Of a stretch of DNA of 64,000 nt, positions 35,026 through 63,439 are shown piece after piece. Numbering within the stretch: position 1 is the first letter of the stretch; each line of letters begins with the position of its first letter. The DNA is from Candidatus Aenigmatarchaeota archaeon (GTDB taxonomy: Archaea; Aenigmatarchaeota; Aenigmatarchaeia; CG10238-14; SCSR01), in contig JAWBWS010000001.1 of NCBI GenBank assembly GCA_038999725.1, positions 32,001 to 96,000 on the forward strand, read 5' to 3'. The notes under the pieces were generated by a model that was not told the DNA's origin, searched no databases, and saw only the letters and a program-made list of their open reading frames with translations. The position numbers were made by a program, and so were the translations under genes.

Positions 35026-35137
35026 TAGCCCCGGGCAGATTCGAACTGCCGTGTTCAGGTTTCTTTCTTCATCTTTTATCCGAGCTTTAGACTTTAAGTC
35101 CAAAGCCTGACATCCTTGACCGCTAGATGACGGGGCT
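35026..35137 (-). tRNA. trnQ: tRNA-Gln(TTG) with 39-nt intron at 37/38 (35061-35099)
   Basis: Acceptor AGCCCCG/CGGGGCT; anticodon stem TCAGG/CCTGA; BHB central helix CTTT/AAAG; mature 73 nt. Confidence 0.93.
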
Positions 35138-35173
35138 GTCTAAAAATAATTTAATCTTTTTATAAAATTTATT

Positions 35174-35404
35174 CTATTTATCCATTCCCACGACTTTAAT
35201 CCCCTTTGTTGTCACCACATAACTGCTTGAACCAAGGGGTGAAACTTTAGCTAAATAGCCCTTCTCTTCCAGGGATTTAAGTACATTCTCTAAAACAACA
35301 AGATCAGCTTTACCTTCAACCAACTTGAAAAGCTCCTCCTTGCTCATCACAAGCTTTTTAGCAATTTCCTCAAGAATTTCTTTTTCTATTCCATCAACTT
35401 CCAT
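35174..35404 (-). CDS. Small winged-helix protein
   Basis: LKSLEEKGYL...YVVTTKG. Confidence 0.75.
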   Translation of the reverse strand: MEVDGIEKEILEEIAKKLVMSKEELFKLVEGKADLVVLENVLKSLEEKGYLAKVSPLGSSSYVVTTKGIKVVGMDK

Positions 35405-35938
35405 TCAAGCCACCAGCTGCTCTTTAAGCTCCCAGGCTTTTTCCCTTCCCAAAAGCTTTTCAACTATAGCTAAAGCGAATTCGAGGGCAGTTCCTGGCCC
35501 TTGGGAAGTTATAATATTTGCATCTACAACAACCCTTTCATCTCTTGGGTATGGTAATTCTTTTTCCATTCCAGGATAAATTGTTGCCTTTTTATTATCT
35601 AACAAATGGTATTTTGCTAAGATTGAGGGAGCAGCGCAAATAGCTGCTATAAGCTTTCCCTTTTCATTCATTTTTTCCAAGAATTCTTTGACTTTGCTTG
35701 ATTTCAAAAGATTGGCAACACCTTTCGAGCCTCCTGGCAACACAATTCCATCGTATTTTTCCAAATCAACTTCATTCATCTTCTTATCGGCCATTACTCT
35801 TATATTATGACTCCCTGTAACCCAGCCGGCTGTTATGCCAACTGTATCAACCTCCATACCAGCTCTTCTCAGCACGTCTATTACAGTAATTGCTTCTATC
35901 TCTTCAAAACCATCTGCAAGCAAAACAAGAATTCTCAT
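35405..35938 (-). CDS. DJ-1/PfpI (YajL-like) protein
   Basis: GFEEIE, LPGG, AICAAP. Confidence 0.93.
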   Translation of the reverse strand: MRILVLLADGFEEIEAITVIDVLRRAGMEVDTVGITAGWVTGSHNIRVMADKKMNEVDLEKYDGIVLPGGSKGVANLLKSSKVKEFLEKMNEKGKLIAAICAAPSILAKYHLLDNKKATIYPGMEKELPYPRDERVVVDANIITSQGPGTALEFALAIVEKLLGREKAWELKEQLVA

Positions 35939-35969
35939 AAATTAATTTTTGTTTTCATTTTATTTATTT

Positions 35970-36317
35970 ATGAGAAAATTCAAGCAGGTGATTCTTGTAA
36001 GAACAGATTTGAAAATGGGAAAGGGAAAGATAGCAACTCAAGTCGCACACGCTGCCATAGGTGCTTTAAAGCTGGTGAATGAAGAAATAATAAAAAAATG
36101 GGAAAGAGAGGGGAGCAAAAAAGTTGTGTTAAAGGTTAAAAATGGGAAAGAATTGGAAGAAATTTGGAAGAAAGTAAAGAAAGAAAGAATTCCTTGTTTT
36201 CTTGTGAAAGATGCTGGTTTAACTCAAGTCGAGTCAGGAACTATAACAGCTTTAGGAATTGGGCCTGTAGAAGAGGAAAAAATTGACAAGATAACTGGTA
36301 AATTAAAGTTGCTATAG
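35970..36317 (+). CDS. pth2: Peptidyl-tRNA hydrolase 2
   Basis: RTDLKMGKGKIATQVAHA, DAGLTQ, GIGP. Confidence 0.95.
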   Translation: MRKFKQVILVRTDLKMGKGKIATQVAHAAIGALKLVNEEIIKKWEREGSKKVVLKVKNGKELEEIWKKVKKERIPCFLVKDAGLTQVESGTITALGIGPVEEEKIDKITGKLKLL

Positions 36318-36325
36318 ATGATTAA

Positions 36326-37801
36326 ATGATAAGTGGAAAATCAGTTGAAAGGGTAAATCTGAGAGAAAATGCAATGATTCTCATTATTTTTTTTCTTTCC
36401 ACAATTTGGTTTATTTTTCAGCACCGTGTTTGTGTAGGTTGGGATTTTGCCGCCTATGTTCTTAACGCAAAATATTGGTTTGGTGAAAGAATTTATTTTG
36501 AACCTTTAAGGCCACCTCTCACGCCTTTCATCATTGGTGTTTTTGGTTCTGTTTTTGGTTGGAAGGCATCAGAATATTTATACATAATTTTAACTTCTTC
36601 CATTTTTCTTTTCTCAACCCTCAAATTGGCTAAAAGTTTGAATTTAAACAGACTCTGTTTTTATGCAATTTCCTTAAATATTTATGTTTTATTAACTGGT
36701 CTTTTCGTTGGCACCGAATTGCTCTCTTTTGCTTTTCTTCAACTCTTTATAGCAGGTTTGATTGAAGGGAAAAATTCTGGCCACTTTCTAGCATTATCTT
36801 CCTTGACAAGATATAATCTTTTGTCAATGCTTCCTTTATTAATTTGCTATAAAAAACCGAGGAAAATTATAAAAAATTTTCTCTTATTCTTTTTTGTTTG
36901 GCTTCCTTGGCTCATTTACAACTATTTTTCATATGGAAACATTTTAGCTAGTTTCTTTGATAATTACTTGCTTAATATAAAAGAGAGGCAGTATATGTAT
37001 CAAACATTTAATCCAACTCATATTCTACTTGTTACAAATTTTTTAACTCCCTTCTTCTTCCTTAGTTTGTTCCATTTCCTGCTCAGCTTGAGAAGGAAAC
37101 CCATCACGCTGAAATTTTTATTGAGCAAAAAAATTGAATTTTTAATGTTGTTAATTTTTATAATCACAATCCTTCTCTACATTAACACGCCCCTCAAAGA
37201 TCCTAGATTTTTGTTTAACCTAACCCTTCCTGTAGTTTATTTTTCTAGTATTGCCTACCCCTTCAAAAAATTCAGGAAAAGCCTCATGTTATTTTCTATA
37301 ACAATATTCATATTTTCATTGATATCTTCATTGCTTTTGTCTCCCCAAGAAACTGATTCTTGTCTACAACCTTATAAGGCGGCAGTTGAAAGAATAGAAA
37401 ATTTAAATCTGAAAAACTGCTCGATGATGTCCAATGGTTGGGTATACCTCAACTATTTAGGTCAAGCTTCTAAACCAAGCCTGAGAAAAGAATTAGTTTT
37501 GCCTTTGATTCAAGAAGGAGAATTGATCCTACTTTTTTACCACATAAGTGAGCCAGAATATACTAAAAACTCCACATTTATTGAAAACCTACCAATAATT
37601 TATAAGGACAACAGATATGTCTTGATTGGGAATTCCAGATGTAAAGAAAAAGAAATTTTCGATATGTCATACTTAAACCAATTGGCCCAAATCATTCAGA
37701 AGATTTACAACTATTCTATCGATGAAAACTATTGCAAACTTATATTTGATAATGATGTTTTAGCGAAACTTTGCAATCTAGCCACTTACCTAAAAAACTA
37801 A
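36326..37801 (+). CDS. GT-C/PMT-like membrane glycosyltransferase
   Basis: WD..Y...A, RPPL, multiple TMs, KDPRF. Confidence 0.75.
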   Translation: MISGKSVERVNLRENAMILIIFFLSTIWFIFQHRVCVGWDFAAYVLNAKYWFGERIYFEPLRPPLTPFIIGVFGSVFGWKASEYLYIILTSSIFLFSTLKLAKSLNLNRLCFYAISLNIYVLLTGLFVGTELLSFAFLQLFIAGLIEGKNSGHFLALSSLTRYNLLSMLPLLICYKKPRKIIKNFLLFFFVWLPWLIYNYFSYGNILASFFDNYLLNIKERQYMYQTFNPTHILLVTNFLTPFFFLSLFHFLLSLRRKPITLKFLLSKKIEFLMLLIFIITILLYINTPLKDPRFLFNLTLPVVYFSSIAYPFKKFRKSLMLFSITIFIFSLISSLLLSPQETDSCLQPYKAAVERIENLNLKNCSMMSNGWVYLNYLGQASKPSLRKELVLPLIQEGELILLFYHISEPEYTKNSTFIENLPIIYKDNRYVLIGNSRCKEKEIFDMSYLNQLAQIIQKIYNYSIDENYCKLIFDNDVLAKLCNLATYLKN

Positions 37802-38433
37802 ATTAGCTTCTTTATTTTTTCCATATCCTGAAATCCTGGATAAACCTTCTCATTGATTACCAATGTAGGCACAAAAGTTATTCCATACTTTTTCTTTAAA
37901 GCAGCTATGGCTGGGTTTTCTATATCAAAATCAAAGGCGTAAATTGTAACTTTTTCTGGATATTTTTCATAAATGTGATCCAACACAAATCCCTGATTCT
38001 CGCTTTCTGTGACATTTTCGCGATTTGAATAGAAAAAAATTATAATCGTGACATTTTTACCACATTTTTCTTTCCATGTTTGTATAAGCAAAAGATGATT
38101 AATTAAAAGTAATTCATACTCTTCTTTCAACCTCAACACATACACATCGTTTTTTCCTCTCAAGTTTTCTAGCATTGCAACTTCTCTTCCCAATTCAAGT
38201 TTTTCTTTACCCATTTCTTTCAAAACATCATAATTACAAATCTCTCCCTCCAAAATTTTTGCTTGAAGTATAGCACCACTTATCTTGTTTTTTATTTCAT
38301 CATAGGTCGAAAACATCTCTTTTATCCTAAAATCTGATATATAATAACCCAAGAAAATTCCTAGGAGGAATATGGAAAGTGTTATTATTAAAGCTTCCAC
38401 ATACCTTCCTGTGCTCAATTTTCTTTTTTGCAT
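37798..38433 (-). CDS. Membrane-anchored thioredoxin-fold protein
   Basis: N-terminal TM; YGITFVPTLVIN; lacks CxxC. Confidence 0.65.
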   Translation of the reverse strand: MQKRKLSTGRYVEALIITLSIFLLGIFLGYYISDFRIKEMFSTYDEIKNKISGAILQAKILEGEICNYDVLKEMGKEKLELGREVAMLENLRGKNDVYVLRLKEEYELLLINHLLLIQTWKEKCGKNVTIIIFFYSNRENVTESENQGFVLDHIYEKYPEKVTIYAFDFDIENPAIAALKKKYGITFVPTLVINEKVYPGFQDMEKIKKLI

Positions 38434-38458
38434 ATTATTAATTGTAATTAAAATAAAT

Positions 38459-39670
38459 TTACCATTTTGGTTTTTTCCTGAAGAAGAGTCTAGAAAGAGT
38501 TATAATTTCAAATAAAGACAAAACCCAAGAATAGAAAAGAATATGGACTAGAAATCTCTTAAACTTAATTTTTCTATTCTTTCCTCTTATTAGAAGAAAA
38601 AACAAAATCGAAATCAAGAACATGAAAATAAATGCAAAAGTTCTTATGTCAAGTAGTGTGTAAAACAATACTGTGCTTGAGAAAATAGATTTAGTATTGA
38701 TTTCATAATTCACAAGTTGTAATAATTCAAGTGATCTCAGAGTGGTGGTAATAGTGTTGAGGATATTTAAGAAAATTACTAGCAAGAGTGCTCCAATGCA
38801 TATTAAAATTTGGGGTAGGATGAAAGCTCCCAAATCACCGTATTCAAGTCCTAGCAACTTTCTATATTTTATCAATTCAACAAAAGTGCCGTACCTCCAT
38901 CTTACCCTTTGTCTCATCAAACCTCTGAAATTATTTGGGACTACTGTGTGAACTTTAGCATCATAAGCATGCGCGATGTTGAAACCATGAAGATTTATTC
39001 TCAAACCAATCTCAAAATCTTCCGTGAGACTATTTTCATCAAACCCACCGTATTTTTTGAAAAATTGAGATTTGAAGAGTACTGCGGCCGGTGCAACTGG
39101 AATTGAGTAAATTGAGGCTGTGAGCTTTCTGAAGAAATTCATGATGATGTATTCTGTCTCTTGTATTTTTTCTAAGAGATTTCTAGGCTTATAAACTTCT
39201 ATTGAAGGCAATACAGCAACCGTATCTTTATCTTGAATTTCTGAAACCATTTTAATCAAAGTGTTTTTTTCAAGAAAGCAATCTGCATCCATAGTCAAAA
39301 CAAACTCACTTTTTACCTTTTTAAGACCATAATTTAAAGCACTTGCCTTTCCTCCCTTTTCTTTCCTATATACTCTTACACCCTGCTTTCTAAATTTACT
39401 TACAATCTCATAAGTTCTATCGGTAGAGCCATCATCCACAACAATTATCTCTAGCTTATTTTTGGGATAGTTTGAATTCAAAATGGATTTAATTGCTTTT
39501 CCTATGTTTTTTTCTTCATTGTAAGCTGGAATTATCACAGAAATCTTTGGAAATTTTCCACTAAATTTCTTACCATCAAAATCACTAGATTTTTGGATAA
39601 AAAGAAGAAAAAACCAAATTGCTATGTAAGTGTAAATGAAGCAAACTGCTAGTATGATAAACAACATCAC
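38459..39670 (-). CDS. GT2 processive glycosyltransferase
   Basis: PAYNEE, DDGS, DAD, TED, QRVRW. Confidence 0.93.
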   Translation of the reverse strand: MMLFIILAVCFIYTYIAIWFFLLFIQKSSDFDGKKFSGKFPKISVIIPAYNEEKNIGKAIKSILNSNYPKNKLEIIVVDDGSTDRTYEIVSKFRKQGVRVYRKEKGGKASALNYGLKKVKSEFVLTMDADCFLEKNTLIKMVSEIQDKDTVAVLPSIEVYKPRNLLEKIQETEYIIMNFFRKLTASIYSIPVAPAAVLFKSQFFKKYGGFDENSLTEDFEIGLRINLHGFNIAHAYDAKVHTVVPNNFRGLMRQRVRWRYGTFVELIKYRKLLGLEYGDLGAFILPQILICIGALLLVIFLNILNTITTTLRSLELLQLVNYEINTKSIFSSTVLFYTLLDIRTFAFIFMFLISILFFLLIRGKNRKIKFKRFLVHILFYSWVLSLFEIITLSRLFFRKKPKW

Positions 39671-39701
39671 TCCAATCTAAATCTTATTTGACTGTAAAAA
39701 A

Positions 39702-40280
39702 TTAAACTTTTATCTCAAGTATAGACATTAAGAATTTAACTACAGCCAAATCAAAATTTTTCAACTGCTCCCTTAGGCTTGTCGCATTCCTGCCTTGAAT
39801 GTAAACAACATGATCTTCCAGTTTTACTGAAGTTTCATTTGAAAAGACTGGATGAACGAGGGCAATTATCGGATTTTCTCTTCTTCCTCTTAGATTTTCA
39901 TAACTTGTAACATTAACAACTTTGAAGTTTGGCATGTAGGCAAAATTAAGCTTGTAAGCTATTGCAAGCTTGTTCACTATTTCAAAAACTTCAATTGCAT
40001 AATGGGCATTGGTTTGGTTTTCACCTGGTTTAAAAACTATTGTTATGTTTTCTACAAGCTGATTCATAATTTCTTTGCGAATCGTTTCTTCGCTTGGATA
40101 AACTACCACATCTTTTACATCTCTTAAATTAACTCTGAATCTCATCTTGACTCCCATATAGTTTACGGAATAGATTGGAAATGGTATATAGGGGTATAGT
40201 GTTATAAGTAATAAGATTGCTAGCAAGAAAAATGTCAAAACTATAATCTTTCCTCTTGTTATAATTACCTTAACTTTCAT
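39702..40280 (-). CDS. Membrane-anchored hypothetical protein
   Basis: 192-aa ORF with N-terminal TM. Confidence 0.7.
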   Translation of the reverse strand: MKVKVIITRGKIIVLTFFLLAILLLITLYPYIPFPIYSVNYMGVKMRFRVNLRDVKDVVVYPSEETIRKEIMNQLVENITIVFKPGENQTNAHYAIEVFEIVNKLAIAYKLNFAYMPNFKVVNVTSYENLRGRRENPIIALVHPVFSNETSVKLEDHVVYIQGRNATSLREQLKNFDLAVVKFLMSILEIKV

Positions 40281-40351
40281 AGAATTAGAATTTGTTTTTC
40301 AAAAATAAAAAGAAAGGGAAAGCTGTCAAAGATTCCAGCAAGGCATCAGCC

Positions 40352-42442
40352 TTAAATCGGCGTGATACCTGCTGTTGTGGCTGCAGTGACCTTAACAGCT
40401 TTAGCTGTCTGGTCTTTAAGTAATGTATCGTATTGTTGAACCACAGAGCATGCTGTTCTTGTGTTAGCTGCTTCCCATCCTGCCACAACTATTGTGAACT
40501 TGCCTTTGGCAGGATAGTCTTCAACTACTTTTATTATAGCAGCATTCTCTGGTATTGTTGAAGCTGCTCCACAAGCTGGGAATGTTAGACCCAAAGCTGC
40601 GGCAGCTTCCTTGTTGACACATGGTCCACCAACTACGACAAGATTCTTTGTCTTGTCTGTAGCAGTAAGCTCAGTGTCAAGTCTTGCTATTGGCATTGTA
40701 ACTGAGACATATTTCTTGTAAGTTTGTCCTTCTACTGCTGCTCCCAGCTTACCAACATAGACTTTTGCCTTTTGTTGGTCAGCCGGAAGGCTTATTACAA
40801 CCTTGTTTGTTACTGAGTTGGACTTAATTCCCTCTATCACTGTTCCATAGTCAAGAGTTTCTTTCCATTCTTGTGCTCCTTTTTCACTCGTTCCTACTAT
40901 TACATCTACTCCTTCAGCTTCTGATTCTTTATAACCAAGGATGAACTTCTTTGCTGTTGCATCGTAAGTGAATAGAGATTTTATGAGGTCTGTGTCTTGT
41001 GTATCTATCGTTAATGTAGCCACAGTTGGTGGTAATGATGCACTTGTAGCATTGTTGTATAGTATGTTGAATGTATGCTTGTCATATTTTCCTGAAAGTG
41101 CTATACCATTATCTAGTGAAGTATTGGTCCAGGCGCTACCACTCACTATCTTACCAAGCGAATCATCATAGTATGCCAATCGTAAGTGTTCAGAACCACT
41201 AGTGTAATTGTAAGCAATGTATGCCTTGCTATATTGCTCTCCATAAAATACTGGCTTGTCAGCTGTAATAACAATAGCCGGCAATTCTGCCTCCAGCTTT
41301 GTATCTGGATTAGCTATGTTGTAAATTCCACCATATGTCTTTCCTGGTGTAATTGTTAACTTGACGAAATCTTTAACTGCTAACTCATGGAAGCCTAAGT
41401 CGAAGTAATCATTTGGAACAATTACTTTCTCTCCAGCCTTTAGATATTTGTTCGTCTCGTTTATTAGGGAATAAGTCAAAGCTATGTAATCTAGATTTTG
41501 TGTTGATTTTGTGGCTTCTATGTCAAATGTCCAATAGTCGTTCAATGGGAAGGCGTCTCCGTCACCATATTCCTTGAGGGTCTTGCCTTTTGGTCCTACA
41601 ACAATATCTGCTTTTACCACAACATTGTCACTTGTAGCAATCACGTCCAGGAGCATTACCTCTAAGCCGGTGACCGAACTTGTAGCTGCAGTAGATCCTT
41701 TTCTAGGCCAGACTGTGTCAACTCTACTGTCTCCTTTCATTATGTTTATTTTCGCCCAATCAGTACCACCCATCTCTGCGTAAAATGTGTACTCACCGTA
41801 TGTTAGTCCAGTTTTTCCATCAATCGATCCTGTTACACCTGTCAACACTTTGATTTTATCATCATCTGTAACATTCACGATTGAGAACTCTTGACCAAAC
41901 AGCTTTACTTTGAACAACTTGTCATAACTTCCTGCCAATTTTATTGGTGTCGTGAACTTTACCTTGTATGTTAGTAGGGTTGTCGCAGAGGAAAGATCTA
42001 CATATACAGTTCCATTTAGCTCTGCATCATGTTTAACTACAGCATTAGGAATTGTAATTTCTTCTACTAGCCAAGAGCTTTGGTCTTCATAGGTTATTGT
42101 TTCTCTTCTCAAGAGGGGTACTTGAGTTTGTGTCAAAGGATCTGTACCGAATTGGGTTGTTAGATCAGCATCGAATGCTACTGATACCTCTTTTCCTGTC
42201 ACCGCTGCAGCTGCTCCTGGTAATGTAACCTCTTCTGTTGATAGCCCTGCCAAAGTTATTGCTATGTCTGCTGCTCCTACAACATCCTCAGGCTTGGCAG
42301 TTGCTCCAATTACTATTAGCCAATCTTCCACTGGCGTACCAAGTGAGGGTATGGCATCGCCAAGGGTTACTGCCAAGACCGGATAAACTGTTGTAAGAGC
42401 GGTCAATGCAGCCATAAGGCCTGCAATCAACTTTTCTTTCAT
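40352..42442 (-). CDS. S-layer protein
   Basis: IVIGATAKPEDVVGAADI N-terminal and NLVVVGGPCVN...VVAGWEAANTR C-terminal S-layer motifs. Confidence 0.9.
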   Translation of the reverse strand: MKEKLIAGLMAALTALTTVYPVLAVTLGDAIPSLGTPVEDWLIVIGATAKPEDVVGAADIAITLAGLSTEEVTLPGAAAAVTGKEVSVAFDADLTTQFGTDPLTQTQVPLLRRETITYEDQSSWLVEEITIPNAVVKHDAELNGTVYVDLSSATTLLTYKVKFTTPIKLAGSYDKLFKVKLFGQEFSIVNVTDDDKIKVLTGVTGSIDGKTGLTYGEYTFYAEMGGTDWAKINIMKGDSRVDTVWPRKGSTAATSSVTGLEVMLLDVIATSDNVVVKADIVVGPKGKTLKEYGDGDAFPLNDYWTFDIEATKSTQNLDYIALTYSLINETNKYLKAGEKVIVPNDYFDLGFHELAVKDFVKLTITPGKTYGGIYNIANPDTKLEAELPAIVITADKPVFYGEQYSKAYIAYNYTSGSEHLRLAYYDDSLGKIVSGSAWTNTSLDNGIALSGKYDKHTFNILYNNATSASLPPTVATLTIDTQDTDLIKSLFTYDATAKKFILGYKESEAEGVDVIVGTSEKGAQEWKETLDYGTVIEGIKSNSVTNKVVISLPADQQKAKVYVGKLGAAVEGQTYKKYVSVTMPIARLDTELTATDKTKNLVVVGGPCVNKEAAAALGLTFPACGAASTIPENAAIIKVVEDYPAKGKFTIVVAGWEAANTRTACSVVQQYDTLLKDQTAKAVKVTAATTAGITPI

Positions 42443-42465
42443 ATTTTTACCTCAATTTTTCCTTT

Positions 42466-42497
42466 CTGTTCAGTACAGCAAGGGCTATACTGAACAG
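42466..42497 (-). promoter_or_regulatory. 14-bp hairpin in the S-layer 5' UTR
   Basis: CTGTTCAGTATAGC-CCTT-GCTGTACTGAACAG on the minus strand; TATA at ~42537-42545. Confidence 0.65.
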
Positions 42498-42686
42498 TCT
42501 CGGGATTTTTCTTAAATAAAAATTAATTTTTGTGGCTATATATAAATTTCCTGAAACAATTTATAAGAAATTGAAACTGTTTCACCAAACCCATAAAAAC
42601 AGGTTTATAGCCAATTATAAAATCGCTAATTGTTTCTAGAGTAAAAATATGACAAAAAATATAAAAATAAAGCTTTATTTAGACTT

Positions 42687-43592: not shown

Positions 43593-43627
43593 AAATAAAA
43601 TGAGTTTTCTTGTTAATTTATATTTTC

Positions 43628-46987: not shown

Positions 46988-47105
46988 GCAGGGGTAGCCA
47001 AGCGGTTAAAGGCGGCAGGCTCAAGTTTGGTTGAGCTTTGATCTGAGATGAAAGAAGGAACCTGCTGGCTTAGTGCCTTCGTGGGTTCGAATCCCACCCC
47101 CTGCA
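46988..47105 (+). tRNA. trnL: tRNA-Leu(CAA) with 34-nt intron at 37/38 (47026-47059)
   Basis: GCAGGGG/CCCCTGC-A; long variable arm; mature 84 nt. Confidence 0.92.
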
Positions 47106-49431: not shown

Positions 49432-49717
49432 GCAGGAGGTCCCTGGTCGGAGAGCTAGGCCCTCTCTACTGGCCTTGCCAGTGGCAAATGGTCTATATGG
49501 CCGACCAAAGCTCGAGGGCGGTGTAGCTCAGTGAACTATTCCAAGCTTGTCGACTGAGAAGTCTTGTCCCACAGGACCGACTTCCCATCAAACCCAGCCA
49601 GGCGAGGAATCGAGCAACTGTAAGATGGGTTGATCGGTGCTTGTGGCAAACAGGATGGAGAAGACGGCTTGGGTTAAATAGTTTGTTGAGTTACATCCAC
49701 CGAGAGCGACCTCCTGC
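49432..49717 (+). ncRNA. ffs: SRP RNA (7S)
   Basis: Terminal helix GCAGGAGGTC/GACCTCCTGC; helix-8 motif CCAGG-CGA-GGAA-TCG-AGCA; long helix 5; T-tract after the 3' end. Confidence 0.88.
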
Positions 49718-54787: not shown

Positions 54788-55354
54788 CTATGGAGTAAGG
54801 CGCTTAATTTCGTAATAAGTGCAATCATTCTCTCTGTCTACAACCGCCCACACGAAAGTCGCCCTTATATTATGTGCAAGTCTCACTGCCCTCGACATTT
54901 CTGGTAAAGAAAAGGCTGCTTCTTCTGGAACAGCATGAACTACAAATTTTGTGTGTTCATGTGGGGCTTTTGGTCCTCTTACAAGCTTTACTCCTCTTTC
55001 GTAAACTCTGAAATGGGCACCAAATTTAAAACCAGTTTTCACCAGATAGCCTCTCTCCCTCAAGTCGCGATAAACTACAAATTGAGGATGAAATTGGTTT
55101 ACTATTTTTGTTGCAATTTCTAAAAACTCCTTCAAGTCTACATATCTCCTCTTTTCTCCCTCTTTTAAAAAAACTTTCATTCTCCCTTTCTCTAAAAGAT
55201 AGGCTGCCTCCACGAGCTCCAATTCAAGCCTACTGGGATTTTCTTCAGGAACTGGTTTACCAAAACCAGAATCATCATAAAGTCTAACAGCATCCTTATC
55301 CCAAATTATTACTCTGTTTTCCACTAATTCTCCTTCCCAAATTTTCTCTGCCAT
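54788..55354 (-). CDS. endA: tRNA-intron (BHB) splicing endonuclease
   Basis: LVEAAYL, VYRDLRERGY, GFKFGAHFRVY, EH, AVVD...YY. Confidence 0.93.
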   Translation of the reverse strand: MAEKIWEGELVENRVIIWDKDAVRLYDDSGFGKPVPEENPSRLELELVEAAYLLEKGRMKVFLKEGEKRRYVDLKEFLEIATKIVNQFHPQFVVYRDLRERGYLVKTGFKFGAHFRVYERGVKLVRGPKAPHEHTKFVVHAVPEEAAFSLPEMSRAVRLAHNIRATFVWAVVDRENDCTYYEIKRLTP

Positions 55355-55399
55355 ACAACTATTTTTATTTTACTAGGTTTTAAAAACTTTTCTTAAAAA

Positions 55400-55912
55400 C
55401 TACACCCAAACTTTTTTACGACAACTTTGGCAAAGCTCTTTATTTTTCCTGTCCACATCACCAATAGTGTTTGAAAAACTCATCACACATGTTGAAATTG
55501 AGCAATGACCTAAACCAAGCATATGACCAACCTCATGAATTGCTTCTTTGACTGCTCTTTCTATCAGAAGGTTTTTATCTGGTTTTTGTCTATAGAAAGT
55601 TGGATCAAGTCTATGGATTGAAACAACACCATAATTTCCATGATAATAAGCTTGACCAAAAACAAAATTCAAATTTTCGGCATAAAGATCTTTATCTGTA
55701 ACCCCTAAAGTTTTATTTTGAAATTTTTCCGATAAAAATTTAAGTACAAGAGGAGCGGGATATTGGTGCCGAATCTCATTGTAAATTTCCTTCGGAATCT
55801 CTATTGGTCTTGTTGTCTCTGTACTCAACTCAAATTTTTCTCTTAATTCCGAAGCTATCGCCGTAAGTACCTCCTCGGGAATTTTTCCAAGCTGAACAAT
55901 TGTGATTTTCAT
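55400..55912 (-). CDS. amzA: Archaemetzincin
   Basis: HEVGHMLGLGHC...CVMSFS...LCQSC. Confidence 0.92.
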   Translation of the reverse strand: MKITIVQLGKIPEEVLTAIASELREKFELSTETTRPIEIPKEIYNEIRHQYPAPLVLKFLSEKFQNKTLGVTDKDLYAENLNFVFGQAYYHGNYGVVSIHRLDPTFYRQKPDKNLLIERAVKEAIHEVGHMLGLGHCSISTCVMSFSNTIGDVDRKNKELCQSCRKKVWV

Positions 55913-56095
55913 AAAGATAATTTAAGTTTAAAAAAAGAAAAAACAAGAGGATACATTAAAATTCAATTAACTCCACATTTTGTATTTTTATCATTCTTTA
56001 TAGACTTTATTTAACCTTCTTCTGTGATTGTAAATGTCTATATTTTCGCTTTTTTGATTGCCATTAAAGAAGATGAATTTAAATTGAGTTTCTTG

Positions 56096-56200
56096 TGGGG
56101 CGGGTGGGATTTGAACCCACAACACATCGCTCTTCAGGCGATCTAGAGCCAAATGGTTGCTCTCCCGGGTTGAGCTTGCGGTAATTAACATTACCGCCCC
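56096..56200 (-). tRNA. trnF: tRNA-Phe(GAA) with two non-canonical introns (9/10: 56176-56191; 26/27: 56143-56157)
   Basis: BHB central helices GCGG/CCGC and AGAG/CTCT; mature 74 nt with intact anticodon arm ATCGC-CTGAAGA-GCGAT. Confidence 0.87.
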
Positions 56201-56316
56201 GCTCCGCCCCATTTTTTAATATTTTATTTTTAATAATTTATCTTGTTTATACTTTGAATAATTCTGGATCAAATCTCTGTAATTTCCAATAAAATTATAA
56301 AGATTAATTCTACACT

Positions 56317-57003
56317 TCAATTTATTCTTAACCTATATTTTATTCCTTCTTTAATCACAAAAATCAAAACCCCAAAAACCATCCTGATTCCTCTTAAAAA
56401 TCCTGATTTTTTCTTGTAAGTTATTGTTACAGGGACTTGAGCAATTTTAATTTTATTTTTCACTGATGAAATCAACATTTGATCTTCGAGGATATACCCC
56501 CCATGGATGTCATCTTTAATCTTTTCCATGGCTTTTCTAGAAAATGCAACAAAACCGCAATTCGTGTCTTCCAATTTTTGCTTAAACAAGAGATTAAAAC
56601 TTGTCTTCCAGATAAAATTACCAAGCCTGTGCCTCAATGGCACTTTTGACCAATCTCTCTTCCCCATGACAAAATCCGCCTTTCCCTCTTTTAGAGGCTT
56701 AAGAAGATTTATCGCTTCATCTGGTAAATATTGCATGTCGGCATCAACAATAACAACATTCTCAGTAGAAGGATATTTTTTGATTAAAAAATTGATGCCT
56801 GTTTTGATAGCTTCACCTTTCCCTTTATTTTTCTCATGTCTCAAAACAAGTGCTCCAGCTTTCTTTGCCAACTCAAATGTTCTATCTTTTGAGCAATCGT
56901 CAATTACAATCACCTTTAAGCCAATTTTTTTCAATCTATAAACAACCTCACAAATAGTTTTTTCTTCATTATAGGCTGGTACGAGTGCTATTTGCATAAT
57001 CAA
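56317..57003 (-). CDS. GT2 (DPM-synthase-like) glycosyltransferase
   Basis: PAYNEE, DDCSKD, NKGKG, DADMQ, DTNCGF. Confidence 0.92.
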   Translation of the reverse strand: MIMQIALVPAYNEEKTICEVVYRLKKIGLKVIVIDDCSKDRTFELAKKAGALVLRHEKNKGKGEAIKTGINFLIKKYPSTENVVIVDADMQYLPDEAINLLKPLKEGKADFVMGKRDWSKVPLRHRLGNFIWKTSFNLLFKQKLEDTNCGFVAFSRKAMEKIKDDIHGGYILEDQMLISSVKNKIKIAQVPVTITYKKKSGFLRGIRMVFGVLIFVIKEGIKYRLRIN

Positions 57004-57056
57004 TCTTTGAAATTTAAAATTATTTAAAAACAGCTAAAACCTTTCAATTTCTAACA

Positions 57057-58181
57057 CTAATCGAGGAAGTCCTTATTTTTGATTTTTTCTGGAATGTATT
57101 TATCTGAAATGAATGTTATACCTTTAGAGGAAAGTGCAGCCAATTCTACTTTCCCATTTAATTCTTTTAACATTTTGAATTGCCTTTGCCAATCTTTGTT
57201 ATTTTTAAACCATGGGTATTGTTCTACCTGTTTCATTCTTTTGATATCAGCTTCTTCAAATTTTATCAAATGTCTCTTCAACTCATATTTTATCACATCA
57301 TCAACAGTAAGACCCAAGAATTTTGCATTTGGTATAGCCAACTTTTCTGATATATGAGATAAACTTATACTCCCATACTTTATCACAGAATAAATATAGA
57401 AACCCCAAACATCAAGATCCGTTAAAACATAAATCGGCAATTTGTGTTCCAAATGAAGCCTTTGTAAAAGTCTTCTAACCCCTCTTGTAGCCTGACCTTG
57501 AGAACTAACTATCACACAATTCAATTTTTCCCAGACTCGATCTTCATGTAACCTTTCCCACTCAGCAGCTTTCTCCATATATATCACAAATTTTGCATCC
57601 ACCTTCTTGAAAATTATATCTTCGACATTGGAAGGAATGCTCCAACCTCCGGAACCAAGCTTGCTCCAGTCAATCACATCACCCTTATCTTCAATCACAA
57701 CCTTTCCAGCAACGGAACCCATCTTGTTTGCATTTATGTGGAGCTGCTCTCTAGAAGCATTTGCTATAAGCTCCAAATCTTCTATAGCTTCATTCGATTC
57801 TGTTTGCTCATCAACAAGATTTATGTTCGAATTTGGTAAAGTCCTCTTCATCCTATAGAAAGCTTCTCTCAAGCTCAAATGCTTATCCATCTCAATTAAT
57901 TCTTTTGAAAGTGCGGCCGCCTCTATTGTTTGAACAAACTTCCTCACATGTGCTATGTTGAAGAAATACCTTTTTGCTGTAGCATTTCCCAAAACGAGCA
58001 TTTTTGTTTGTTCATCAAACCTGACGTTACTTAAAGCTCTTATAGGTATCTCTAAGCATGGGTTTCTCATGGCTTTTATATCCTCCAAGATCTTTTCCCC
58101 TATTTTCTCAAGATTCCTCTTTACTTCCTTCTTCTTTTCCACCCACACCACCCTTCTCCAATATTTTTTCCAAACCTTCAA
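57057..58181 (-). CDS. top6A: DNA topoisomerase VI subunit A (true start probably ~35-40 nt downstream)
   Basis: LREAFY catalytic Tyr; TOPRIM MEK...DLD; ELAAL. Confidence 0.95.
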   Translation of the reverse strand: MKVWKKYWRRVVWVEKKKEVKRNLEKIGEKILEDIKAMRNPCLEIPIRALSNVRFDEQTKMLVLGNATAKRYFFNIAHVRKFVQTIEAAALSKELIEMDKHLSLREAFYRMKRTLPNSNINLVDEQTESNEAIEDLELIANASREQLHINANKMGSVAGKVVIEDKGDVIDWSKLGSGGWSIPSNVEDIIFKKVDAKFVIYMEKAAEWERLHEDRVWEKLNCVIVSSQGQATRGVRRLLQRLHLEHKLPIYVLTDLDVWGFYIYSVIKYGSISLSHISEKLAIPNAKFLGLTVDDVIKYELKRHLIKFEEADIKRMKQVEQYPWFKNNKDWQRQFKMLKELNGKVELAALSSKGITFISDKYIPEKIKNKDFLD

Positions 58182-59679
58182 TTATTTTTTGCTTTTTCTC
58201 ATTTGTTAGCTTTTCTAGAGATTCAGCAAACTCTGGTATATACTTCTCAAATAACTCCCTCCTTAATCGAGATTCTCTTGCTTTCTTTATTTGTCTCACA
58301 TAGCTAGCAAGCCTCCTTCCAGCCTCTTGTAAAGCAAGTTTTACCTCACGCAGGATCTCTGGGTATTTTGCTATTGCTTGTTTTCCTTCAGAAGTGAAAG
58401 GAACCCAAACTGAAGCAAAATGAATGAAGATTACCAATGGTCCAACGGGAAGTTGACCTTGAGATTGTGATAAACCATAACGACGAAAATCTGTTTCTAT
58501 CGTAGCTTCAGTCAAAGCACAATCACCTTGGTGATATAGCAAAGGAACTTTATTAGCAAACCTCAACAGCTCAGCTGTTTGATCTTCTGGTAAATTTCCC
58601 CCATAAGCTAAACCCACTTCCACCAAAAATGGGTTGCCACGATAAACTGCAGGTGACCTGGTGACTGCAACCACGTATTCGGCACCTGTCTCTTTTTCCA
58701 GCCCTTCCCTTATCAGTTTTTCACCAAGAGGGGAAAGACAATCTGTGGGCGGTGCTTTTAGTTTAACAAGCTGCATAGCTTTATGTAACCTCTCAGACTC
58801 TTCATGAGTAAGTTGACTTGGCTTTTTGTTCGGTTCAAGCTTTGCAAGCCTACAAATTTGCTCAGCAGACCTTTTTCCAACTCTAGAAAATTCAGAAGTC
58901 AAAAATTGTAAAATATTTCTTGTTTTAGTTGAAGAGAGCATTCTTCTGAGCAAACCAATTTCAACACCGTAAGGATGTGGTTTGATTTCCCTTGGTTCTC
59001 TTGGCATCTCTTCAACAGCTCTTTCAAAAGTTGTTTTACCACTTGGTCCGTCAAAGATTATTTTAGCATATGGATTTGCTATTGCTGTTTGCCTTAGATA
59101 TTCAGTTATTGATTGTGCCCTTTCCACATATTTACCTTCGATTTCCATTTCTACTTTAACACCATGCCACTTACTTGGATTTTTTTCTACTGTATGGGAA
59201 ACAATTATAGGCTCATTTTTAACTACATCAATCATAAGTTCAAAGATGTGAATATCTTTGCCTATGCTTGTTGTGATTTTTGTTGGTTTTCCTGTTGTGA
59301 GTTGAGAATAAAGAACTGCACCATGAATTCCCAGGCCCTGGATTCCTCGAGACTGTTTTAGCCTATGGAATTTTGAGCCATACAAAAATTTACCAAAAGC
59401 ATAAGGCACTTTCGATTCAACAACCCCAGGACCATTGTCTTCAACCATAACTCTAAATCTTTCCCCACTTGTCGGTTTAACAACAACTTTTATTTCTGGT
59501 AAAATTCCGGCTTCACAGCAAGCATCTAGAGAATTGTCAACCGCTTCTTTAACTACAGTCAACAAAGCTTTTGTTGGATTCTCGTATCCAAGCAAATGCC
59601 TGTTCTTCTCGAAAAATTCGGCTACCGAAACTTCTTTCATCTCTTTTGCCATTTTTTCAGCTATACTTTCTTCAACCAT
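58108..59679 (-). CDS. top6B: DNA topoisomerase VI subunit B
   Basis: EAVDNSLDAC, EDNGPG, SRGIQGLG, RFANKVPL. Confidence 0.97.
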   Translation of the reverse strand: MVEESIAEKMAKEMKEVSVAEFFEKNRHLLGYENPTKALLTVVKEAVDNSLDACCEAGILPEIKVVVKPTSGERFRVMVEDNGPGVVESKVPYAFGKFLYGSKFHRLKQSRGIQGLGIHGAVLYSQLTTGKPTKITTSIGKDIHIFELMIDVVKNEPIIVSHTVEKNPSKWHGVKVEMEIEGKYVERAQSITEYLRQTAIANPYAKIIFDGPSGKTTFERAVEEMPREPREIKPHPYGVEIGLLRRMLSSTKTRNILQFLTSEFSRVGKRSAEQICRLAKLEPNKKPSQLTHEESERLHKAMQLVKLKAPPTDCLSPLGEKLIREGLEKETGAEYVVAVTRSPAVYRGNPFLVEVGLAYGGNLPEDQTAELLRFANKVPLLYHQGDCALTEATIETDFRRYGLSQSQGQLPVGPLVIFIHFASVWVPFTSEGKQAIAKYPEILREVKLALQEAGRRLASYVRQIKKARESRLRRELFEKYIPEFAESLEKLTNEKKQKIIEGLEKILEKGGVGGKEEGSKEES

Positions 59680-60160
59680 ACCTACCCTCAATCAAGGCCT
59701 TGAAGACCGTTGAATGTTTTCTCCCTTGAATCAAACTTTCTATGGCTCTCCTTGCTTTTTGAACCTCGTCCCACTTACCTATCATTGAAACTGTTTTACC
59801 ATAAATTGCAATTTTAACATTTGTATATTTCTCTATTAATTTTTTTGCTTTACCTTCTCTCCCAATTACTCTACCTTTTACCACAATCATTCTTTTCCTC
59901 GATTTACCCAAAATTTGTTGGAGATTTATGGTCTCTAAGCAATATTCCTCATCCAACAAATTTAATGCAACGTCCAAATCAAAACCTCTTCCAAAAGCAT
60001 TCACCACTTCTTTTATTCTCATCAGTAACAGCGAATTCTCTGCTTCAATTGAAATTTCTTCATTTATTTTGATTTTGCAACCCAAAAGCTTTTCTAATTT
60101 ATCTACATAATTCCTAAAAATTTTCAACCTTTCTTCAGGAATTTTCACAAAATCTATCAT
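59672..60160 (-). CDS. KH-domain ribosome biogenesis protein (Dim2/Pno1)
   Basis: GRGF, GRVIGREGK, GRKHSTV. Confidence 0.9.
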   Translation of the reverse strand: MIDFVKIPEERLKIFRNYVDKLEKLLGCKIKINEEISIEAENSLLLMRIKEVVNAFGRGFDLDVALNLLDEEYCLETINLQQILGKSRKRMIVVKGRVIGREGKAKKLIEKYTNVKIAIYGKTVSMIGKWDEVQKARRAIESLIQGRKHSTVFKALIEGRYG

Positions 60161-60161
60161 A

Positions 60162-60497
60162 CTACTCTATCTGAATGTTTTTAATAAACCCCTTTTTCTT
60201 GAGCCAACCAGCTTGGGTTGGGGTGTACTTGAAGATTACATCCCCTTTCTCATTGCTTTGAACTTTCCATGGTTGTATGAGAACCAAATCGCCTGCACCT
60301 ATCCAAACCTTCTTCCTCAGTCTGCCAGGAATCCTGCATATTCTTGTATTTCCATCATCACATACAACCTTGAGCTTATCCCCTCCCAGCATCATTTCAA
60401 CCGCACCTAAGACTTCACCTTCTCTTGGAATTCTAATTCTAGCTATCTCAAGTTCTTCTTGTGTTGGCTCATATTTTTTTGTCATGTTACCACTCAT
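60162..60497 (-). CDS. eif1a: Translation initiation factor aIF-1A
   Basis: MLGG, RICRIPGRLRKKVWI..GD. Confidence 0.95.
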   Translation of the reverse strand: MSGNMTKKYEPTQEELEIARIRIPREGEVLGAVEMMLGGDKLKVVCDDGNTRICRIPGRLRKKVWIGAGDLVLIQPWKVQSNEKGDVIFKYTPTQAGWLKKKGFIKNIQIE

Positions 60498-60509
60498 TTA
60501 ATTTTTCAT

Positions 60510-61184
60510 TCAAGAAATAGAAATTAGTATCGTATCTCTATAAACTTTTTTCCCTCTAACTCTTCCTCCTATTTTTCTGGTGATCTTGACTTTAGCCATA
60601 AACTTAGATTTGAGGATTCTTGCTATTTGGTGAGCAGAATTTTTAGAACCTATAAAAACATCGAAGCCATTTTTAGTTTCTTTTAGACTTGAAATAAACG
60701 CTAACCTATCATATTGATTTAGATAATTGATTTGACTTTCAATCTCATCTTTAATTTTTTCTAACAAATCTTTAGGTGCTCTCACTTGAAGAACTGCTTG
60801 AAAATATCCGGAGCTCTTCATGAAGCAAGCTTGGCAAGTTATCTTCTTTATCTTCAAATCTATTACCTTCTCCTCACTTTTTTCCAAATCATTTGTTTTT
60901 AAATTAAGCGTTAGGTAAATTTTACCGTCAGCTATCCTGTAGAAAAGAGAGTTTAATTCTTCTTCCCTAAAAAGCTGTTGGAAAAACCCTTCAATCAACT
61001 CTTCTATATTTGAAGAAGAATAGCTTCTAAAGAAAAATCTTCCACATGATACACATTCTTTAACTTCCAATCTTTCTGACAGTTTACCCAAAAAAGAAAA
61101 TTTTGAGAGGAAACATACTTCACAAAGTCCTTCATACAACTTTTCAGTTTTCTTTCCACATTTTGGACAAAACTTTTCTCTCAC
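60510..61184 (-). CDS. nmd3: NMD3-family protein
   Basis: CPKCG, CEVC, CVSCG, CQAC, YFQAVLQVR. Confidence 0.88.
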   Translation of the reverse strand: MREKFCPKCGKKTEKLYEGLCEVCFLSKFSFLGKLSERLEVKECVSCGRFFFRSYSSSNIEELIEGFFQQLFREEELNSLFYRIADGKIYLTLNLKTNDLEKSEEKVIDLKIKKITCQACFMKSSGYFQAVLQVRAPKDLLEKIKDEIESQINYLNQYDRLAFISSLKETKNGFDVFIGSKNSAHQIARILKSKFMAKVKITRKIGGRVRGKKVYRDTILISIS

Positions 61185-61234
61185 AAAAAGAAAATTATTT
61201 TTAAATTAGTTAAGCTTAAATAAAATTTTAGGAA

Positions 61235-61328
61235 GCCTCGTTAGCTCAGTTGGTAGAGCATCCGAAGAGTTAAAACTCTGGTGAACCTTGTAAGCGGAGG
61301 GTCGTGGGTTCAAATCCCACACGAGGCT
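61235..61328 (+). tRNA. trnT: tRNA-Thr(TGT) with 21-nt intron at 30/31 (61265-61285)
   Basis: BHB: CATC/GGTG central helix, AGAGT/ACTCT inner helix; mature 73 nt. Confidence 0.92.
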
Positions 61329-61340
61329 TTCAAGCAAATT

Positions 61341-62375
61341 TTACAATAGATCTATGTCTAGTAATCTCGCCAAGTTTGAGAGATTTAAATTTTTTATTAG
61401 AGAAAAAAGGAATGGTTTATCAGAAATTTTTGATAAAAACCATTTCACCAACAATCCTTTTTTTATGGGCCAGGCAAGTCTTCCTTTCCATTTTTTATCA
61501 TAATTCTCCATCAAAAAATCTCTTGAGAAATTGTTTGTTTCTATAGCTTTTACTATAGCATCTCCAGCAATCTCTGCGCAAATCTTATTGTACACCAGAC
61601 CACCTGCAGAAAAAGGTTTAACCTGACAAGCAGCATCTCCTACAAGCAAAACATTATCAGAAACTGACTCTTCAATTAAACCATATCTTATCACATCACC
61701 TATCCTATTAGAAAAAATTTTTTTATCAAACCTTAATTTTAGGAAATTTTCCAAATAGTTGTTTGGGTTTTTGTTTGTCATTAAACCAACTCTAGCGATT
61801 TTTTCATTTTCGGGAACAACCCAAGCAAAGGAGCCTGGAGCAATTTTGGAACCAAAATGGAGTTCAACACTCCTAGCTTCAAAATTTGACTCCACCTTCA
61901 CTTGTAAAGCAAATAGAAAATTTTTGGGCTGGTTTATTCCAGCTTTTTTGGCAACAGTTGAATTTGGGCCATCTGCACCTACTAGAACCTTACATTTAAA
62001 TTTTCCCTTGTTAGTAAAAATTGTGTTGCCTTTGAAATCTAAAAATCTTGTTGATGTTTTAATTTCAGCTCCAGCTTTTTCAGCCCTTCTTGCAAGCCAT
62101 AAATCATATTTTCTCCTATCTAAAACAAACATTCTTTCTCTTGAGTTAATTTCAAAAAATTTATCTCCAGAGAAAAATCTTGCTTTATCAATTTTGTTTA
62201 AAATCATATCTTTTGGAATTTTACCTATCCTTTTACTAACCAAGCCTGTGCATTGAACAGGCTCTCCAATTTTTGAGTGCTCTTCTAATATTAAGACTGT
62301 GTACCCTTTTCTGGCAACATTCTCACCTGTGATACAACCAGCAGGGCCTGCGCCAACAATAATACAATCGAACAA
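61341..62375 (-). CDS. Geranylgeranyl reductase-family FAD oxidoreductase
   Basis: GAGPAG, GADG, FAWVVP, VGDAA. Confidence 0.9.
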   Translation of the reverse strand: MFDCIIVGAGPAGCITGENVARKGYTVLILEEHSKIGEPVQCTGLVSKRIGKIPKDMILNKIDKARFFSGDKFFEINSRERMFVLDRRKYDLWLARRAEKAGAEIKTSTRFLDFKGNTIFTNKGKFKCKVLVGADGPNSTVAKKAGINQPKNFLFALQVKVESNFEARSVELHFGSKIAPGSFAWVVPENEKIARVGLMTNKNPNNYLENFLKLRFDKKIFSNRIGDVIRYGLIEESVSDNVLLVGDAACQVKPFSAGGLVYNKICAEIAGDAIVKAIETNNFSRDFLMENYDKKWKGRLAWPIKKGLLVKWFLSKISDKPFLFSLIKNLNLSNLARLLDIDLL

Positions 62376-62520
62376 ATCAATCCCCTAAACAAATATAATA
62401 TCCAAAAATTAAAATCCATCTAGAAGATCTTGGCATAACGAAACATTAGAATAAAAGATGATTGGAAACATTCACTAAAATAATAGTTGATTAATTTTAC
62501 TCTGTTCAATAATTCTCATC

Positions 62521-63266
62521 TTACCTACCAAAATTCCTTTGTATAGAGTTATACCATTTAATTGCCTTAATCAAATCTTTTTTGGAGAAATCTGGCCAAA
62601 GCTTTTTGGTAACATAAATTTCTGCATAAGATGCTTGTATCAACATGAAGTTTGAAAGTCTGGAAAAGCCCCCAGTCCTTATCACAAGGTCAAGAGGAGC
62701 AGGAACAAGCAAATTAGCTTCTATGTCTTTTTCTGTTACTTCTACTTTACCAATTTTTATCGCTTTTTCTACAATTTTTTTTATCGCTTGAGTTAATTCA
62801 AATTTGCTTCCGTAGGCTATCATTATGTTTAAAACCCTTTCCTGATATTTTGCGGTATTTTGCATTATTTTCCCCATAAGCTTAACGAGCTTTGGTGGTA
62901 ATTTTTCAAGGTCGCCAATAAACCTAACTTTGACTTGATATTTATCCAAAAATCCCCCTTCCTTCTTTTTCCCCCTCTCCCACTTTTTCAAATAATTGTA
63001 GAAAATCTTGAAAATTTCTTCCAATTCCCTTTTTGGTCTATTCAAGTTTTCTGTAGATAAAACATATGCCGAAACTTGTGGTATTCCTAACTCTAGACAC
63101 CAGTTCAAAAACTCTTCAAACTTTTTTGTGCTTGTGAGAGTTTATCCTCTCAACAATTTGCACCATATTTATGTCCTTCCCAAGGTTGTAAACCATGAAG
63201 TCTTGCCCATCTTCTGTTTCCATCCAAAATTATTCCTAGATGATTTGGGAGTGTCAACTCGTTCAT
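62521..63266 (-). CDS. uppS: Cis-prenyltransferase (UppS), join(63266..63158, 63125..62521), 237 aa, with a 32-nt intron
   Basis: Exon 1 encodes PNHLGIILDGNRRWA...EGHKYGA; exon 2 encodes KFEEFLNWC...STEN...IRTGG..RLSNF. Confidence 0.9.
63126..63157 (-). other. BHB-type pre-mRNA intron in uppS
   Basis: GTGC-AA^A-TTGTTGAGAG-GATAAA-CTCTCACAA-GCAC-AA^A; removal restores the frame (GGT GCA AAA AAG TTT). Confidence 0.85.
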
Positions 63267-63335
63267 CGATACACCTCCATTTTTTCATAAATTTTAAATA
63301 ATATAAATATTTTTAAAAACAAAAAAGTTTGAAAT

Positions 63336-63439
63336 GGGGTCGTCGTCTAACCAGGTAGGACAGCAGGCTCCAGGTTCAATGGAGCTCTGACAAAAGATGA
63401 AGAAACCTGTATGTGAGGGTTCAAATCCCTCCGACCCCA
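63336..63439 (+). tRNA. trnW: tRNA-Trp(CCA) with 31-nt intron at 37/38 (63374-63404)
   Basis: GGGGTCG/CGACCCC-A; stem GCAGG/CCTGT; mature 73 nt. Confidence 0.93.

Follow-up and report, generated by a model that had tools for sequence, protein, structure and literature searches.

A Putative Half C/D Guide to the Wobble Base in Precursor tRNAs of an Aenigmatarchaeote

Three of the six intron-bearing tRNA genes in a 64,000-nucleotide (nt) stretch of the genome of Candidatus Aenigmatarchaeota archaeon (hereafter the window; C1:32001-96000) contain, within their introns, a short module in which a segment antisense to the host anticodon loop is followed by a D-like and a C-like box. Judging from its sequence and its conservation, this module is probably a natural half of a C/D guide RNA that is tethered in cis to its own target, where it would direct 2′-O-methylation of the wobble nucleotide (Nm34) and would also gate processing of the precursor. 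In its predicted design it is a variant of the guide in the pre-tRNA-Trp intron, stripped to one box pair. The same module recurs in other precursor tRNAs of this genome and in many relatives, and its boxes covary in the register expected of a kink-loop (K-loop).

Putative half guide modules in the window, the genome, and its relatives

In the tRNA-Trp(CCA) gene (63336..63439, + strand; 53.1 bits in Rfam), which has an intron of 31 nt at position 37/38 (63374-63404), the module lies at 63380..63403 (+) and consists of the guide TGGAGC (63380-63385), a single T, the box CTGA (63387-63390), the spacer CAAAAG (63391-63396), and the box ATGAAGA (63397-63403). The tRNA-Leu(CAA) gene (46988..47105, +; 49.5 bits; intron of 34 nt at 37/38, 47026-47059) carries its module at 47031..47054 (+), with TTGAGC (47031-47036), T, TTGA (47038-47041), TCTGAG (47042-47047), and ATGAAAG (47048-47054). 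Both of these guides pair with nt 31-36 of the host tRNA. On the minus strand, the tRNA-Gln(UUG) gene (35026..35137; 46 bits; intron of 39 nt at 37/38, 35061-35099) has a module at 35066..35093 that reads AGTCTAAAGC (35093-35084), T, CGGA (35082-35079), TAAAAG (35078-35073), and ATGAAGA (35072-35066); this guide pairs with nt 31-37 plus three intron nucleotides to give a 10-bp duplex with two G.U pairs. The borders of exons and introns were parsed by hand, because ARAGORN found two of the six tRNAs of the window with default settings and, with introns allowed, gave most anticodons wrongly.

Guide and boxes in all three introns lie exactly where the first-pass annotation of the window had placed them, and its choice of the wobble nucleotide as target also agrees with the pairing, since the fifth nucleotide upstream of the D-like box (N+5) pairs with C34 in Trp, C34 in Leu(CAA), and U34 in Gln. 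Its description of a spacing of exactly 6 nt between the boxes holds for these three modules but not for the wider family, in which 63 modules have spacings of 6-9 nt. A shared 21-nt pattern, AGCTYKGANNNNNNATGAARR, matches three times in the window, always in these introns, against 0.02 matches expected from 100 shuffles of the window, none of which reached three. The other three tRNAs that Rfam finds in the window are without the module.

The source genome comprises 729,769 bp in 9 contigs, is 93% complete, and has about 35% G+C. All 35 tRNA matches of a first genome-wide Rfam search were inspected for the module, and a scan for the box region alone (YKGA-N4-7-G-ATGA(A/T)RR), in which the guide was not required, added the Leu(UAA) intron and the Ser(UGA) leader to the Rfam-based set. 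Eight introns at 37/38 carry the module, namely those of Trp CCA, Leu CAA, Leu UAA, Gln UUG, Lys UUU, Glu UUC, Arg UCU, and Met CAU, and a ninth copy lies in the 5′ leader of tRNA-Ser(UGA), where it ends 3 nt upstream of the mature 5′ end. The suggestion that the half guide had been extended to several tRNAs is therefore borne out by at least eight intron modules and one leader module. The general anatomy is 6-11 nt antisense to nt 31-37, one nucleotide, YKGA, 6-9 nt, and ATGA(A/U)RR. The tRNA-Leu(UAA) gene (C1:198336-198502, −; introns at 30/31 and 37/38), which was missed by Rfam genome-wide and scored 38.9 bits in a local search, combines CTGA with a consensus ATGATGA box in its 37/38 intron.

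The scan for the box region gave 76 matches in the genome versus 23 in each of two control genomes, and nine of the 76 fall in precursor tRNAs. In all nine, the bases upstream of the boxes pair with host nt 31-36 or beyond and bring nt 34 to N+5; because the guide played no part in finding these modules, this register constitutes an unbiased test. The carriers are all five U34 tRNAs of the two-codon boxes ending in purines, together with the single-codon tRNAs Met and Trp and with Leu CAA; Ser UGA is the outlier. By hand parse, the module is absent from Lys CUU, which has no intron, and from Gln CUG, which has two other introns. The introns that carry it are paralogous, with T-YKGA, an AAG-ATGAA core, and the 3′ end RAAGAA/A in common.

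A strict composite pattern of guide and boxes is matched in 19 of 24 close relatives, with no matches to the reversed control pattern. In a sample of 300 genomes of the phylum, all labeled as the same class, 106 have matches, and a hand count of the table gives 183 matches versus 5 for the control. By family, the pattern is found in 42 of 56 genomes of the archaeon's own family and, in other families of the same order, in 4/19, 12/17, 3/3, and 1/1, with two further families at 0/1. Clear Gln, Arg, Trp, Glu, and Lys modules occur in other orders. Trp modules are present in many relatives, and in one family of the order (f4) the module is, among readable rows, almost confined to Trp and still is a half unit. 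The boxes are thus conserved in related genomes, a point on which the first-pass annotation had made its proposal depend, modules being common to relatives in the order and in the class. A loosened composite pattern matched 113 of 117 genomes at order level and gave control matches too, so that these tallies are not evidence and only the sequences were used. The DNA sequencing runs that contain the stretch are hot-spring metagenomes, and the closest relatives of the fibrillarin among GTDB genomes are in Candidatus Aenigmatarchaeota metagenome-assembled genomes (74%-81% identity).

K-loop covariation and the guide helix

The box region was compared in 63 modules, a set made up of 57 loci from relatives and the nine of this genome (66 in all), less one with a longer spacer and two that had been mis-parsed. 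All 63 have YKGA and ATGA(A/U)RR, with the GA dinucleotides of both boxes invariant and with spacers of 6 (27 modules), 7 (31), 8 (4), or 9 nt (1). Kink-turns pair through tandem G.A/A.G followed by D′2:C′5 and D′1:C′6, and this is the register that fits every module. The D′1:C′6 pair is U-A in 44 modules (including TTGA/ATGAAAG of Leu(CAA) in the window), C-G in 17, U.G in 2, and mismatched in none (Fisher 1.7e-13, uncorrected for phylogeny), whereas the register of a plain Watson-Crick hairpin gives 26 mismatches among the 63 at the corresponding pair. Both U-A and C-G occur within Gln, within Trp, within Leu UAA, and within Ser, and the double change must therefore have been repeated. The lack of C/A combinations is no artefact of ascertainment, because any Y could combine with any R in the search pattern.

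A MAFFT alignment of the box region with 55 distinct rows gives the same picture, with D′1:C′6 as UA in 40, CG in 14, UG in 1, and unpaired in none. The covariation score of 0.369 compares with 0.257 ± 0.029 in shuffles (0/500 as high) and with 0.114 when the register is slid by −1, figures that are inflated by related sequences. MAFFT alignment of whole anticodon arms misaligned the variable loops and was not used for a covariance model. In RNAfold predictions, the box region of five arms folds as a small hairpin, and that of Trp and Gln stays open. Together, these compensatory changes, which follow the K-loop register and not that of a plain hairpin, support the interpretation of the boxes as D′ and C′ that would form a K-loop, as had been proposed, and the covariation across related genomes that this interpretation called for is found in both the guide and the K-loop. 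The second box pair of a complete C/D RNA (terminal C, RUGAUGA; terminal D, CUGA) is absent from the introns of 31-39 nt; in the Trp intron only 2 nt are left after the C′ box, with no D box and no antisense to U39.

The guide is complementary to the host anticodon in all 63 parsed modules and forms duplexes of 6 bp (20 modules), 7 bp (4), 8 bp (14), 9 bp (15), 10 bp (9), or 11 bp (1), while introns without the module in the same genome form 2-4 bp with the anticodon loop, near their 3′ end (hand parse). In 39 of the 63 modules the pairing continues into the first bases of the intron, which suggests that the unspliced precursor is the target; the notion that the module might act as an excised circle, raised in the first-pass annotation, finds no support in this arrangement.

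The guide helix and the bulge-helix-bulge (BHB) of the splice site occupy the same nucleotides, and 37/38 is the canonical place for an intron of this kind. We tested the canonical hBHBh′ motif, with two 3-nt bulges and a 4-bp helix of nt 32-35 with intron positions −6 to −3. All four pairs of the central helix can form in Lys and Gln, three in Arg and Trp, and two in Leu CAA and Met; in Glu it consists of C32-G, one mismatch, one U-A, and one U.G. Forcing an arm into the canonical BHB costs 6.1-12.7 kcal/mol relative to its free fold, which has the guide helix, in 7/7 anticodon arms; this confirms the suspected competition over nt 32-35. Furthermore, the distance between the C′ box and the 3′ splice site is 0-13 nt, and the box adjoins or overlaps that site (in Glu UUC, A38 and G39 are its positions 6 and 7), and in the Ser leader version it lies 0-3 nt from the RNase P site and adjoins or overlaps the tRNA 5′ end.

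The Ser leader places the guide about 58-80 nt upstream of its target (seven leader modules). There, the 5′ bases of the guide change in step with the two bases that open the pre-tRNA-Ser intron (CC:GG, TC:GA, CT:AG), a covariation that cannot reflect a local hairpin or a requirement of the splice motif, and U34 is at N+5 in all seven copies, which are free of the junction geometry of the introns. Together, the duplex length, the fold competition, and the Ser leader copies argue that the antisense stretch would serve as a guide rather than as a splicing helix.

Guide-like elements in rRNA, proteins, and other RNA genes

Related units occur in the rRNA genes. The 16S gene is 2,354 nt long, compared with 1,478 positions in the model. 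By Rfam alignment, its GAUUAGAUACCC loop region holds an insertion of 82 nt (C4:~65289-65370) with the half unit CTGA-TTCAAG-ATGAAGA, whose guide pairs 8 bp with the exon just upstream, and the tip of helix 44 is expanded (C4:~66750-66850; 149 nt for 36 model positions). This expansion, recognized by eye, is a full C/D RNA with ATGAAAA, a guide, CTGA, AAATTG, ATGATGA, a guide, and TTGA. One of its guides pairs 11 bp with the conserved CCCGUCA stretch of the same 16S, and the other, by manual alignment, pairs 8 bp with the 3′-terminal TCACCTCC of the same 16S. The spacer that immediately precedes 23S (C4:71880-72060) contains two C/D-like RNAs. The one at C4:71991 reads TTGATGA, 14 nt, CTGA, AAAAAG, ATGAAGA, 13 nt, TTGA, and its D guide pairs 10 bp with the 23S fragment on contig C6; it was the only convincing match in a scan of the genome for full-length C/D patterns. 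The other (C4:~71880-71950) was rejected as a guide, having a degenerate D box and no convincing target; its 11-nt match to 16S is no better than several matches elsewhere in the genome. Every guide that we found sits in the precursor of its own target, and the variant boxes of the tRNA modules are those used in this organism's guide-like RNAs, which look like working guides.

The proteins of a C/D methylation system are encoded. The absence of fibrillarin or Nop5 had been named as grounds for abandoning the proposal, and both are present, in adjacent genes at C1:188,896-190,578, together with L7Ae. A second L7Ae-family match (C1:226942-227211, −) has one in-frame TGA. Residues 1-350 of the 357 of Nop5 align to residues 2-372 of the solved Sulfolobus Nop5, which is dimeric, and this full-length alignment rules out a loss of the dimerizing coiled coil. 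The window itself encodes the catalytic domain of the tRNA-splicing endonuclease (54815..55093, C1:86815-87093, −; PF01974, E 2.8e-27; open frame of 193 aa). A PF01974 search and a Pfam scan detect this gene and no other of its kind in the genome, and the sole detected splicing endonuclease must excise these introns.

We also considered whether Um34 replaces the usual chemistry of the wobble uridine. Elp3 and the PP-loop ATPase of the NcsA/TtuA type have no match in the archaeon's own, 93%-complete genome. Among 68 genomes of its family, Elp3 is found in 25, including 6/6 of a module-rich genus (g11) and 1/7 of its own genus, and the PP-loop family in 28. On these counts there is no clean either/or, and a replacement of this kind is a possibility for particular lineages only. 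A sister family of the order commonly has both proteins.

Several other RNA genes were noted. In addition to the six tRNA genes, Rfam finds one archaeal signal recognition particle RNA in the window (49433-49716, +; 113 bits), placed between intron-bearing tRNA genes. Elsewhere, tRNA-Gln(CUG) apparently has two short introns, at 29/30 and 37/38, and the anticodon arm of a second Arg-like tRNA gene is complex and interrupted (loci C1:242331-242427 and C2:147004-147113). At C8:3849-3936 (−), a hand-read Arg(UCG) tRNA has a 12-nt intron, without D′ box or guide, that ends in the C-box-like string TTGATGAA, which may be a remnant of the module or may be due to chance.

A proposed cis-tethered guide, its alternatives, and its meaning

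The known guide in the euryarchaeal pre-tRNA-Trp intron occupies about 100 nt and has two box pairs. It has been called "a unique example" and is a complete C/D RNA that selects C34 and U39 (PMC4090602). The Trp introns of Haloferax volcanii and Pyrococcus (sR50) resemble the modules described here in their location at 37/38, in having antisense to the host C34 upstream of D′, and in acting on the precursor, as the modules would (PMC4090602, PMC7994747), whereas the introns here are of 31-39 nt, with one box pair, one guide, and no guide to U39, and eight tRNAs carry the intron module instead of one. Among trans-acting C/D small RNAs (sRNAs), Pyrococcus guides to nt 34 are described for Leu CAA, Leu UAA, Met, and Trp (PMC7994747), and Pyrobaculum guides for C34 of Trp and U34 of Gln (PMC6009581). 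Measurements of Cm34 and Um34 are reported for archaeal Trp, Met, and Gln UUG, the last with Um34 and s2Um34 in S. acidocaldarius, and Cm34 is described as restricting C34 to G, so that A is not read (PMC7668247). The carrier set matches tRNAs with documented or predicted C/D-guided wobble methylation elsewhere. The trans-acting sRNAs share the target position, an overlapping set of tRNAs, and the N+5 rule; they are free-standing and bipartite with guides of 10-12 nt, in contrast to a guide with one K-loop in the precursor of its own target.

Within DPANN archaea, Randau (2012) predicted a C/D RNA in the 66-nt elongator tRNA-Met intron of Nanoarchaeum equitans and stated that a functional C/D RNA had previously been known only in tRNA-Trp introns (PMC3491384). 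That intron is described as stable and as having boxes C and D, and Met CAU is also a carrier here, but the case concerns a single tRNA and a longer intron with terminal C and D boxes. The Ser leader version recalls the dicistronic tRNA-C/D sRNA transcripts of archaea and plants, in which the sRNA is co-transcribed and released by tRNA processing (PMC7994747); in the archaeal cases given there the sRNA lies downstream of the tRNA, whereas the leader module lies upstream, abuts the RNase P site, and targets its own wobble base. The literature searched, in which "C/D" is an unsearchable term and which left subscription journals outside, has no description of half guide modules in the introns of several tRNAs or in the leader of one.

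In the mechanism that we propose, the D′-like YKGA and the C′-like ATGA[A/U]RR, 6-9 nt apart, would form a K-loop that recruits L7Ae and then Nop5-fibrillarin. The 6-11 nt upstream, past one spacer base, would form a helix with nt 31-37 of the precursor that carries them, often extending into the first bases of the intron, so that fibrillarin would face the 2′-OH of nt 34, whose partner is the fifth base of the guide counted upstream from D′. The resulting ribonucleoprotein particle (RNP) would have to leave before the endonuclease or RNase P could act, because the guide helix and the BHB use the same nt 32-35 and the C′ box is close to the cut site; the precursor would thus be methylated first and processed afterward. 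We infer L7Ae binding, methylation of nt 34, and this order of events from sequence features. With a single box pair on a dimeric Nop5 scaffold, perhaps two precursors would share one Nop5 dimer.

Several observations count against this mechanism. The guide duplex is just 6 bp in Trp and Leu CAA, shorter than in usual guides, and position 5 of the C′ box is A instead of U in most copies. In the introns, the placement of nt 34 at N+5 could come in part from the geometry of a three-way junction, since the guide directly follows the anticodon stem. The 57 loci from relatives were picked by eye for visible complementarity between guide and anticodon, and their nt-34 register was imposed by the search pattern, being unbiased only in the nine modules of this genome. 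Furthermore, Hardin and Batey (2006) reported that hemi C/D RNPs are active in vitro but not site-specific, that both box motifs are needed for pinpoint specificity, and that the bipartite architecture is "absolutely conserved" in nature (PMC1635284). Those RNPs likewise have one box pair and one guide, but as a terminal kink-turn acting in trans, whereas here the K-loop is tethered in cis by a loop of 2-16 nt and the anticodon stem; this tether to the target might supply the missing second anchor. The full-length Nop5 shows no sign of adaptation to a monomeric state.

An alternative that we regard as unlikely, though still the most serious competitor, is that an L7Ae-bound K-loop and an antisense mask over the anticodon loop act without methylation as a checkpoint in folding or processing, either keeping the precursor from being spliced or cleaved by RNase P, or shielding the anticodon from premature modification or from nucleases. 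The greater stability of the guide fold over the splice-competent fold in all seven arms, the location of the C′ box at the 3′ splice site or, in the Ser leader, at the tRNA 5′ end, and the poor site specificity reported for single-box-pair units in vitro would all suit such a mask. A mask needs no fixed distance to the boxes, however, yet all seven leader copies place nt 34 at N+5, and the carriers coincide with tRNAs reported elsewhere to have Nm34. Moreover, the unit in 16S and in the full C/D RNAs is aimed at conserved rRNA sites, and Nop5 and fibrillarin have been kept although few other guides were found for them.

It is considerably less probable that a mobile or duplicated intron family derived from a full C/D intron like that of Trp left the modules behind as relics, with boxes that are decaying passengers without function and antisense that persists only because pairing with the anticodon loop is required of archaeal introns. 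In other archaea tRNA introns are known to transpose, the introns here are clearly paralogous, and the near restriction of the module to Trp in family f4 is what such an origin could leave behind. Against this, the box positions are invariant, and the D′1:C′6 pair, at the non-canonical stem, has no mismatch in 63 modules over several families and orders; it changes only by double substitution, which therefore indicates purifying selection and not decay. The 6-11 bp at a fixed distance from the boxes also exceed what splicing needs, to judge from the introns without the module, and the module occurs outside introns as well, in the Ser leader. As for a chance resemblance of AT-rich introns to short box motifs, YKGA and ATGAARR are indeed short and common, as the many matches of the box-only scan in the control genomes show, and loose patterns are swamped by matches in coding sequence, for which reason two were dropped (a first loose box pattern and a G.U-tolerant target scan against all tRNAs). 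With complementarity to the host anticodon in every parsed module, and with the controls in the window, in the 24 relatives, and in the 300-genome sample, this explanation is refuted and we give it practically no weight.

A half C/D guide in cis thus remains our preferred interpretation of the modules. A broader proposal, which we put forward tentatively and toward which we are somewhat skeptical, is that essentially all guides of Aenigmatarchaeota have been rebuilt into the precursors of their own targets, mostly as units with a single K-loop, with the tether as second anchor and the RNP as a timer. If so, guides would be carried by tRNA introns, by a tRNA leader, by a 16S intron, by the helix-44 insertion, and by the spacer before 23S. 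As a timer, the RNP would keep the endonuclease or RNase P from its site until methylation of the wobble base has taken place, which would give the introns a positive function and explain their persistence at 37/38 in just those tRNAs that must discriminate codons ending in purines.

The purpose of tRNA introns is a long-standing question, to which the pre-tRNA-Trp guide is the one clear archaeal answer. The logic of the Trp intron would now extend to eight or nine tRNAs in a single genome and to a DPANN lineage as a whole, pared down to a form that the in vitro work cited above would lead one to expect to be non-site-specific. If it works, it would be the smallest natural substrate of an RNA-guided methyltransferase, it would mean that cis-tethering can stand in for a second box pair, and it would tie the retention of introns to the accuracy of decoding at split codon boxes. 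The module also provides a signature for annotating disrupted tRNA genes in DPANN genomes.

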